The notes below the pieces were generated by a model. It saw nothing but the letters and a program-made list of their open reading frames with translations, had not been told where the DNA came from and searched no databases. Of a stretch of 64,000 nucleotides of DNA, positions 24,135 through 25,235 are shown one piece after another. Source of the stretch: Escherichia coli (GTDB lineage: Bacteria > Pseudomonadota > Gammaproteobacteria > Enterobacterales > Enterobacteriaceae); NCBI RefSeq assembly GCF_003991155.1, contig NZ_CP031293.1. One strand, given 5' to 3'. The first letter of the stretch is position 1. The number at the start of each line of letters is the position of its first letter. Made by a program: the position numbers and the translations under genes.

Positions 24135-25235
24135 TTAGAACTGATAGGTAATTCCCGTTGCGACGATGTTATCGGTGCGAATATCTACGGCACGGGTAAA
24201 GTCGCTTTCATCAATCAGGTTGATTTTATAATCAACATAGGTCGACATATTTTTGTTGAAGAAATACGTCGCACCAACGTCGATATACTCAATCATGTCC
24301 TGGTCGCCGTAGCGGCCCAGATCTCTGCCTTTCGATTTCAGGTAAGCGAGTGATGGGCGCAAGCCGAAGTCGAATTGATATTGTGCCACTACTTCAAAAC
24401 TTTGTGCTTTGTTAGAGATATAACCATCGCCATAGGTGGTCATGTTTAATGTTTCAGCGTAATTAGCTGCAAAGTAGATGTTGTTGGCATCATATTTTAT
24501 ACCTGTAGCCCACAGTTCTGCATTCTTACCGGAGGCATTGAGAGGATTAGCAGCGGCTCTTTCCTGCGCATTTGTCCGATCGGATTTGGTATACACCGCA
24601 CCGATACCAAAGCCATCATAAACATAAGTTGAGGAGATACCGAAACCGTCACCATTGGCACGCGTGTAGTCAGCACCATAAAGATGACCATTGTCAGTGC
24701 GTTCATTTTTGCCTTGATATTGCGCGGCAAAGTTCAGACCTTCAATTAAGCCGAAGAAATCGTAGTTGCGATAGGTTGCCACACCGGTAGTACGGTATGT
24801 CATGAAGACATCTTTCTGACTCCAGGTATCGCCACCAAATTCTGGCAACATATCGGTCCATGAACCAATGTCATAGCCGACACCGTAGTTACGACCATAG
24901 TCCAGAGAGCCAAATTCACTAATTTTTAAACCTGCATAGGCCAGACGGGTCTTGTTACCGCGCGAGCCGTTGGCTTCATCGTTATAGCCTTTAAAATCAT
25001 ATTCCCAGTGACCAAAACCAATCATTTGATCATTGATTTGCGTTTCTCCTTTAAAGCCGAGACGGGCATAAGTTTTATCACCATCGTCACGCTTATCATC
25101 AGTAAAATAACGTAGAGCGGTAACCTTGCCATAAAGGTCGAGTTTATTACCATCCTTGTTATAGACTTCGGCAGCGTGTGCTACGTTCGCAGCTAACAAA
25201 CCAGTTACAACCACCGCAACTATTTTTAATTTCAT
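24135..25235 (-). CDS. yddL: OmpC/OmpF-family general porin, intact
   Basis: 366 aa, signal peptide [21 protein letters not shown], porin beta-strand pattern ending in aromatic F; gene symbol by position (recalled as a fragment in K-12). Confidence 0.8.

Follow-up and report, generated by a model that had tools for sequence, protein, structure and literature searches.

The minus-strand ORF at 24135..25235 of the window (by which we mean the whole stretch of 64,000 nt of Escherichia coli DNA that was analysed) most probably encodes an intact, selectively maintained general-diffusion porin, which would be the positional orthologue of OmpD, ancestral at its slot and lost by deletion in K-12. Precisely, the gene would have been ancestral at the position fdnGHI-yddG-porin and would survive in the strain of the window with its own promoter region, 5′UTR and terminator. 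In the K-12 lineage a 1.5-kb deletion would have reduced it to the 96-codon yddL stump, with a second deletion fusing the downstream LRR genes, and in UPEC129-type genomes the whole interval would have gone in one 4.2-kb deletion. The product would be exported by Sec and inserted by BAM, with trimer assembly of the 16-stranded beta-barrel porin, and would form a channel that, as with OmpC or OmpD, is non-specific and leans towards cations; its transcription may proceed from an ompD-like promoter, possibly CRP-dependent and H-NS-dampened, and may be accompanied by an escape from MicC control.

An earlier note on this DNA had described a full-length 366-aa porin with a signal peptide and a C-terminal aromatic residue, leaving the strand unstated, and this description is accurate. 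The list of ORFs contains exactly this CDS on the minus strand, from ATG to TAA (366 aa, the stop codon being included in 24135..25235), and Pfam Porin_1 covers it end to end (residues 27-366 against positions 1-337 of the 337 of the model, E=2.2e-134). The score against the NCBIfam 'porin OmpC' subfamily NF007841 is 495 bits, a narrow pass of the cutoff of 484, and the scores against the NCBIfam equivalog models of OmpF and PhoE are below their cutoffs. Using phmmer, solved OmpC/OmpK36 chains were matched across residues 22-366 with E~1e-127 and ~60% identity. Because of the Porin_1, NCBIfam and phmmer matches the ORF is far beyond chance.

The 21-aa signal peptide (codons 25235-25173, minus strand) ends in AHA, and residue 22, where the mature codons begin (25172-24138, minus strand), is also where the alignment with the solved mature chains of OmpC/OmpK36 starts. 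The mature N-terminus is of the conserved porin type AE(V/I)YNKDGNK, and the C-terminus, ...GITYQF, carries the aromatic beta-signal Y-x-F. In the alignment, both the PEFGGD motif of L3 and all of the constriction residues considered (K16, R42, R82, R132, D113 and E117 in OmpF numbering) are kept. The AlphaFold model, generated from a 24-sequence alignment and used only for the fold (its mean pLDDT of 64.6 is moderate and the L3 region is poorly modelled), gave TM values of 0.82-0.89 against OmpK36/OmpC at 60% identity. The predicted fold is the 16-stranded beta-barrel, for which the sequence identity to the solved structures is the stronger evidence. Taken as predictions from sequence, these results confirm that the product is a complete member of the general porins (OmpC/OmpF/PhoE family).

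The GC content of the gene is 44%, compared with 44.7-50.6% for the other E. coli porin genes, and we considered it to be within the range of E. coli porin genes. The gene and its O157 allele differ by 20 synonymous and 3 non-synonymous changes, corresponding to a dN/dS of 0.039, similar to that of the flanking yddG (0.023). A dN/dS of about 0.04 points to continued purifying selection on the protein in the lineages that keep the gene. At least 1,000 contigs encode the exact protein, which goes by the names 'porin OmpC' and 'outer membrane porin protein LC'. The 90% cluster containing it also contains LepA proteins, a clustering artefact, and the size of this cluster was left unused.

As claimed in the earlier note, the gene lies between the LRR genes and yddG, according to both the ORF list and Pfam. 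The order on the minus strand is yddG (EamA/DMT aromatic amino acid exporter, 293 aa, 25493-26374), immediately upstream of the porin, then the porin, an LRR gene of 421 aa directly downstream (22706-23971), an LRR gene of 418 aa that is an EspR1 homologue (21387-22643), narU and narZ, with the divergent fdnGHI upstream of yddG. Both LRR genes are EspR-like and low in GC (34-35%). The closest complete genome in the collection, ECCNB12-2 (chicken, China), has a porin 100% identical and a locus 99.8% identical to those of the window.

By BLASTP against K-12, the porin is 59.7% identical to OmpC, 59.4% to OmpN, 57.0% to OmpF and 56.3% to PhoE (56-63% across comparisons), and these four K-12 porins are at least as close to one another as the porin is to them. 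The nearest proteins from outside E. coli are those of C. koseri (78%), of other Citrobacter/Enterobacteriaceae (73-75%) and Salmonella OmpD (72-74%), and the identity to the NmpC/Lc phage porins is 67-68%. The label 'OmpC-family' of the earlier note is right as far as it means the OmpC/OmpF/PhoE general porins and loose beyond that, since by identity and synteny the gene belongs to the OmpD/NmpC branch.

The order fdnI-fdnH-fdnG, yddG, porin is common to Salmonella, C. koseri and another Enterobacteriaceae genome, and in a five-way alignment about 130 nt located 5′ of the porin ATG are homologous to the sequences upstream of Salmonella and C. koseri ompD. Escherichia sp. MOD1-EC6300 has the same order, with a porin identical at 364/366 positions and two LRR genes. 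E. albertii has the same porin slot, in which IS1 interrupts the porin. LRR genes are missing after it, and its sequence becomes homologous to the window again at 21260, the far border of the LRR block. Where E. coli has the two LRR genes, Salmonella and Citrobacter have GFA-smvA-smvR before narU. In an NJ tree the porin groups, on a long branch and with a moderate bootstrap of ~78, with the yddG-linked Citrobacter porins; Salmonella OmpD is 81% identical to NmpC/Lc and 74% to the E. coli porin. Mainly from the synteny and the shared upstream sequence, we take the porin to be the positional orthologue, in E. coli, of the OmpD of Salmonella and Citrobacter. Synonymous changes are saturated in the comparison with the Salmonella and C. 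koseri genes, so that strict vertical descent is unprovable from sequence alone.

Three other origins have to be weighed against a porin ancestral at this slot. The porin could be part of the recently acquired O-island 62, transferred horizontally with the LRR effector genes that it immediately adjoins. This is how the locus appears in the parts of Okeke et al. 2011 covered here, where z2239 is counted among four island ORFs for which a GC of 33-36% is given (PMC3079680). The porin has a GC of 44%, not 34%, the adjacency to yddG and the upstream sequence are common to Salmonella, Citrobacter and another genus, and the slot in E. albertii has the porin but lacks the LRR genes. Given the GC, the synteny in four other taxa and the E. 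albertii locus, we rejected this origin, which we regard as quite unlikely; by the same comparisons, only the LRR genes would behave as an inserted island, with the porin ancestral at the slot.

The PGAP label would make the gene an ompC or ompN that has moved or been duplicated, and the NF007841 score above cutoff and the RefSeq name ompC speak in favour of such an origin. Against it, the porin is no closer to OmpC and OmpN than OmpC is to OmpF, the gene is at neither the apbE-ompC-(micF)-rcsD nor the uspF-ompN-micC-nifJ locus, and megablast found it in a median of one place per genome with no cross-match to ompC. The alignment proposed in the earlier note as a check, like the comparison of loci, rules this origin out, and we consider it extremely improbable. 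No more credible is an NmpC/Lc-type prophage porin as the remnant of a lambdoid phage that has decayed. NmpC and Lc do fall in the same broad clade as the porin, and some sources give the exact protein the name 'outer membrane porin protein LC', but no phage ORFs adjoin the gene, which is flanked by the core genes yddG and narU; its signal peptide is of the MKLK... type, as in OmpD, and not MKKLTVA..., and its synteny is with the chromosomal ompD. We ruled out this origin from the genomic context. The reading we prefer is that of a porin ancestral at the slot and deleted from it in K-12 and other lineages.

According to the earlier note, a short porin fragment is all that K-12 has at this position, and this holds, the gene being incomplete in K-12. 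In RP437, a K-12 derivative, yddL is 276 bp long and annotated as 'porin; incomplete; missing C-terminus', and the K-12 pseudogene yddL (b1472) corresponds to nt 1-284 of the porin plus the whole upstream region, at 98% identity. Aligned by blastn, the window and the K-12 locus share three collinear blocks separated by two gaps. With the first sequence missing in K-12 (23420..24951, minus strand), the porin gene has lost its last 817 nt, and the spacer that follows it and the 5′ portion of the 421-aa LRR gene are gone as well; the junction shows no more than imperfect microhomology. The second (22446..23087, minus strand) takes in the 3′ portion of the same LRR gene and ~200 nt from the start of the 418-aa one, and is located at a perfect 11-bp repeat, ATTGATTTATC, which codes for an IDLS motif in each of them. 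This second deletion joined the two LRR genes into the chimeric yddK/yddJ of K-12. K-12 YddL consists of 92-93 porin codons followed by a few out-of-frame codons derived from the LRR gene (96 aa in total), that is, a signal peptide and about four strands, so that no barrel is possible. In the parts of their text covered here, Okeke et al. 2011 wrote that the ancestral island 'was disrupted in E. coli K-12 by insertion of yddK' (PMC3079680); judged by the alignment, the yddL/yddK/yddJ arrangement of K-12 is attributable to two deletions and not to an insertion of yddK.

We surveyed 5,426 complete E. coli genomes by megablast, considering as full-length any match covering at least 80% of the gene. 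The porin gene had a match in 4,267/5,426 genomes, which was full-length in 1,111 of the 5,426, the remaining matches being limited to the first 278-284 nt. A 4.9-kb query extending from yddG to narU resolved three main states of the locus. The full locus (at least 80% covered) was present in 1,008/5,426 genomes, including O157:H7, O166:H15 and other lineages; the K-12-type locus, 56% covered, was the majority state and included O104:H4 and K-12; and a locus only 15% covered, in which yddG abuts narU, was found in ~1,150 genomes, among them UPEC129, ATCC 25922 'Seattle 1946' and NCTC11151. The block missing in the UPEC129-type genomes (21261..25416, minus strand) extends over the porin promoter, the porin itself and the two LRR genes. 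UPEC129 is a urine isolate. Minor variants of the locus were also observed, namely an IS3 insertion in the porin (H37) and partial deletions (H42 and H43), together with variant proteins, a porin-LRR fusion (P0005) and a 269-aa 3′ fragment (P0014). The intact porin is a common polymorphism of E. coli, present in about a fifth of the complete genomes, and an ordinary member of its family. The earlier note had proposed that this strain retains an extra general porin, with conceivable consequences for permeability or susceptibility to phages; the gene is in fact intact where K-12 has a stump, but its retention is not specific to the strain. The gene is lost in ~80% of E. coli genomes and is therefore dispensable.

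An intact porin at this locus is, as a finding, already published and annotated. In the parts of Okeke et al. 2011 covered here, the locus is O-island 62 of EDL933 (Z2239-Z2242), present in EHEC, in EAEC 042 and in several other E. coli/Shigella genomes, and K-12 yddL is already noted as matching the 5′ end of z2239 (PMC3079680); in the same passages the terms 'porin' and 'outer membrane' have 0 matches, so that z2239 is not named there as a porin. In RefSeq, PGAP labels the gene 'ompC: porin OmpC' in more than 1,000 complete genomes. No paper in the searchable literature contains 'yddL' and 'ompD' together, and neither the positional orthology with OmpD nor the two-deletion history of K-12 was found there; we consider these two points, both drawn from sequence comparison, as small refinements of modest weight.

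The region between yddG and the porin (25236..25492, minus strand) is 257 bp long with a GC of 27.6%, a value at which dampening by H-NS is plausible. A putative promoter was placed at 25314..25344 (minus strand) by alignment with the element that precedes the start of the ompD transcript in Salmonella; it is composed of a -35-like hexamer TTGTGT (25344-25339) and a -10 region TTTTAAAAAC (25323-25314). A generic promoter scan of the upstream region did not call this promoter. The hexamer TTGTGT is weaker than the TTGAAC of Salmonella ompD. Salmonella ompD is under CRP control, and a CRP-like candidate site, TTCGA-N6-TCACA, agreeing with the consensus at 8/10 positions, lies at 25381..25396 (minus strand); its TCACA half recurs in the corresponding position in Salmonella and C. 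koseri. Transcription would start near 25308, resulting in a predicted 5′UTR of ~73 nt; the 5′UTR of Salmonella ompD is 69 nt long (PMC3333887). A Shine-Dalgarno sequence AAAAGGA was located at 25245..25251 (minus strand), the core AAGGA being present in 5/5 aligned sequences, and the -10 region, the AU-rich 5′UTR and the Shine-Dalgarno sequence are conserved with Salmonella ompD. Downstream, 12 nt past the stop codon, a hairpin (24123-24100) followed by a T run, resembling an intrinsic terminator, extends over 24090..24123 (minus strand), with a 9 bp stem including 6 G-C pairs.

The sites for small RNAs are less well kept. The 12-bp MicC target at codons 23-26 is GAGGTATATAAC in Salmonella and C. 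koseri and GAAGTCTATAAC in the E. coli porin, where the duplex would contain two mismatches and has a predicted energy of -13.9 kcal/mol, compared with -20.8 and -21.4 in Salmonella and C. koseri, and is no better than shuffled controls. The MicC site of Salmonella ompD thus appears not conserved in the E. coli porin, which bears on regulation and not on orthology. The region of the SdsR site of Salmonella ompD, in the early coding sequence, is also altered in the E. coli porin. For RybB and SdsR the energies computed with duplexfold, which permits long internal loops, were no different from those of shuffled controls in every species, and the RybB query was the Rfam match, from which the first three nucleotides of the seed are missing.

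A fourth alternative overlaps with our preferred explanation and concerns expression: the porin could be intact and conserved and yet silent under ordinary conditions through an H-NS-type mechanism, like OmpN or OmpS1/OmpS2 of Salmonella, in which case it would add little permeability unless specifically induced. We regard this as quite possible, if somewhat short of an even chance. The AT-rich upstream region, adjoining an island of 34-35% GC, the -35 weaker than in Salmonella, and the repeated losses of the gene, which mark it as dispensable, all argue for quiescence. Among the papers searchable by main text, none reports on expression or function of the Z2239/ECs2076/EC042_1601 gene, and the retained 5′ region of K-12 yddL is reported to be essentially unexpressed except under NaCl stress (PMC9976479). 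On the other side, the low dN/dS indicates continued selection on the protein, and the -10 region, Shine-Dalgarno sequence and AU-rich 5′UTR are shared with an ompD gene that is highly expressed in Salmonella. By TraDIS, yddL was called 'essential' (PMC5821084); we set aside this call as a sign of occlusion by H-NS, about which PMC5821084 makes no statement.

The preferred explanation, a maintained porin ancestral at the slot, can be extended to a stronger claim, namely that the porin of the yddL locus, and not nmpC, is the true vertical orthologue of OmpD, kept by purifying selection in about one in five E. coli (O157:H7, lineages like EAEC 042, and others), lost independently at least three times (through the K-12-type double deletion, the UPEC129-type 4.2-kb deletion and IS insertions) and deprived of its MicC and SdsR sites. 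We put this forward as a tentative and rather doubtful proposal. If it were true and the porin expressed, a lineage-specific extra general porin would shift antibiotic permeability and the repertoires of phage and colicin receptors between E. coli lineages. A carrier of the allele possesses a potential general porin that K-12 lacks, and conclusions on permeability, antibiotic uptake and phage receptors obtained in K-12 with OmpF/OmpC/PhoE/OmpN may not transfer to O157:H7, EAEC 042-like and similar lineages. The RefSeq label 'ompC' may mislead surveys of porin loss in resistance genomics, because the name ompC then occurs twice in one genome. In practice the significance is modest, and the points on orthology and deletions leave the general understanding of porins unchanged.

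Among known systems, the one closest by position is Salmonella OmpD, with which the porin shares the type of signal peptide (MKLK-VAV-VT-LLAA in both) and a near-identical L3, ...PEFGGDTW(T/S)Q.DVFMT.RTTG, and from which it differs in lacking the conserved MicC target and in having LRR genes as downstream neighbours. With OmpC, OmpN, OmpF and PhoE of E. coli it has in common the fold, the family, the constriction residues and the C-terminal signal, whereas its locus is another one and its external loops differ in sequence and length. NmpC (DLP12) and Lc (phage PA-2) belong to the same OmpD-like branch as the porin, but they are borne by prophages and begin with MKKLTVA..., and the porin is chromosomal and begins as OmpD does. 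Fröhlich et al. treated nmpC as the ompD-like gene of E. coli (PMC3333887); by position, the counterpart of Salmonella ompD in E. coli is the porin of the yddL locus rather than nmpC. For E. coli ATCC 25922, too, an 'ompD' has been described, under the annotation 'outer membrane porin protein LC' (PMC7696260). We rejected it as the same gene, as it appears to be a porin of the Lc type and ATCC 25922 is without the yddG-narU porin locus. Finally, Z2239 of O157:H7 and orf1601 of EAEC 042 are the same gene as the porin of the window. The O157:H7 allele is 97.9% identical in nucleotides and 99.2% in amino acids, and the O157 locus differs in that its middle LRR gene is split, whereas in the window that gene is intact and 042-like, with 421 aa.

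In the window, the middle LRR gene (22706-23971, minus strand) starts with GTG and has an intact ORF of 421 aa; in NCBIfam, its product weakly resembles the LRR part of SlrP, a T3SS effector. The gene orf1600 of EAEC 042 has the same intact form, whereas in O157:H7 the counterpart is in two pieces (7264-7773 and 7860-8147 in the O157:H7 locus, L003). The ECCNB12-2 locus (L001) is 99.8% identical to the window; however, for this gene PGAP calls there just a 288-bp partial pseudogene (L001 7862-8149), hence the full 421-aa ORF is without annotation in that strain. The adjoining LRR gene (418 aa, window 21387-22643, minus strand) encodes the homologue of the O157:H7 gene named espR1 (a T3SS effector) by RefSeq. 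The best local alignment between the 418-aa and the 421-aa protein gives about 30% identity over about 180 aa.

The two genes share the perfect 11-bp repeat ATTGATTTATC (6591-6601 in the K-12 locus, L002), and yddK/yddJ of K-12 is a chimera produced by recombination between both LRR genes at this repeat; the segment missing from K-12 is window 22446-23087. An insertion of yddK in K-12, as suggested by Okeke et al. (PMC3079680), is rejected.

As regards the outer edge of the LRR block, E. albertii is without the LRR genes and its homology to the window returns at 21260/21261; the 4.2-kb deletion of UPEC129 has its right edge at exactly the same base. This coincidence suggests that the LRR insertion truly ends, on its outer side, at window position 21260.

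E. albertii (CP034213.1, locus L014 6137-8014) carries an orthologous porin in the same slot as that of E. coli, with 91% identity over the part that the protein P0012 shares with it. In this case, the gene is split by an IS1 after about 85 codons, a further independent inactivation. The protein P0001 is a 365-aa porin from a 2.1-kb ENA contig, in which the first ~130 residues are OmpC- or OmpN-like and the rest is almost identical to the porin of the window; it comes either from natural recombination or from a chimeric assembly. The 90% cluster holding the exact porin sequence has a 603-aa LepA as representative and includes further LepA members. Such a mixture is an artefact of the database's clustering, and the cluster size should not be taken as a measure of the porin's frequency.

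Elsewhere in the window, an in-frame TGA (27191-27193) connects the ORFs 26606-27193 and 27242-29653 and lies at an Rfam SECIS_3 element (84 bits, window 27188-27246, plus strand); this TGA encodes the selenocysteine of fdnG, an ordinary feature.

Lastly, Salmonella and C. koseri ompD contain a MicC pairing site, whose counterpart in the porin is the region of codons 23-26 (window 25168-25157, minus strand). Unlike these, all the E. coli alleles considered (the window, O157 and the K-12 stump) carry two substitutions disrupting the site.
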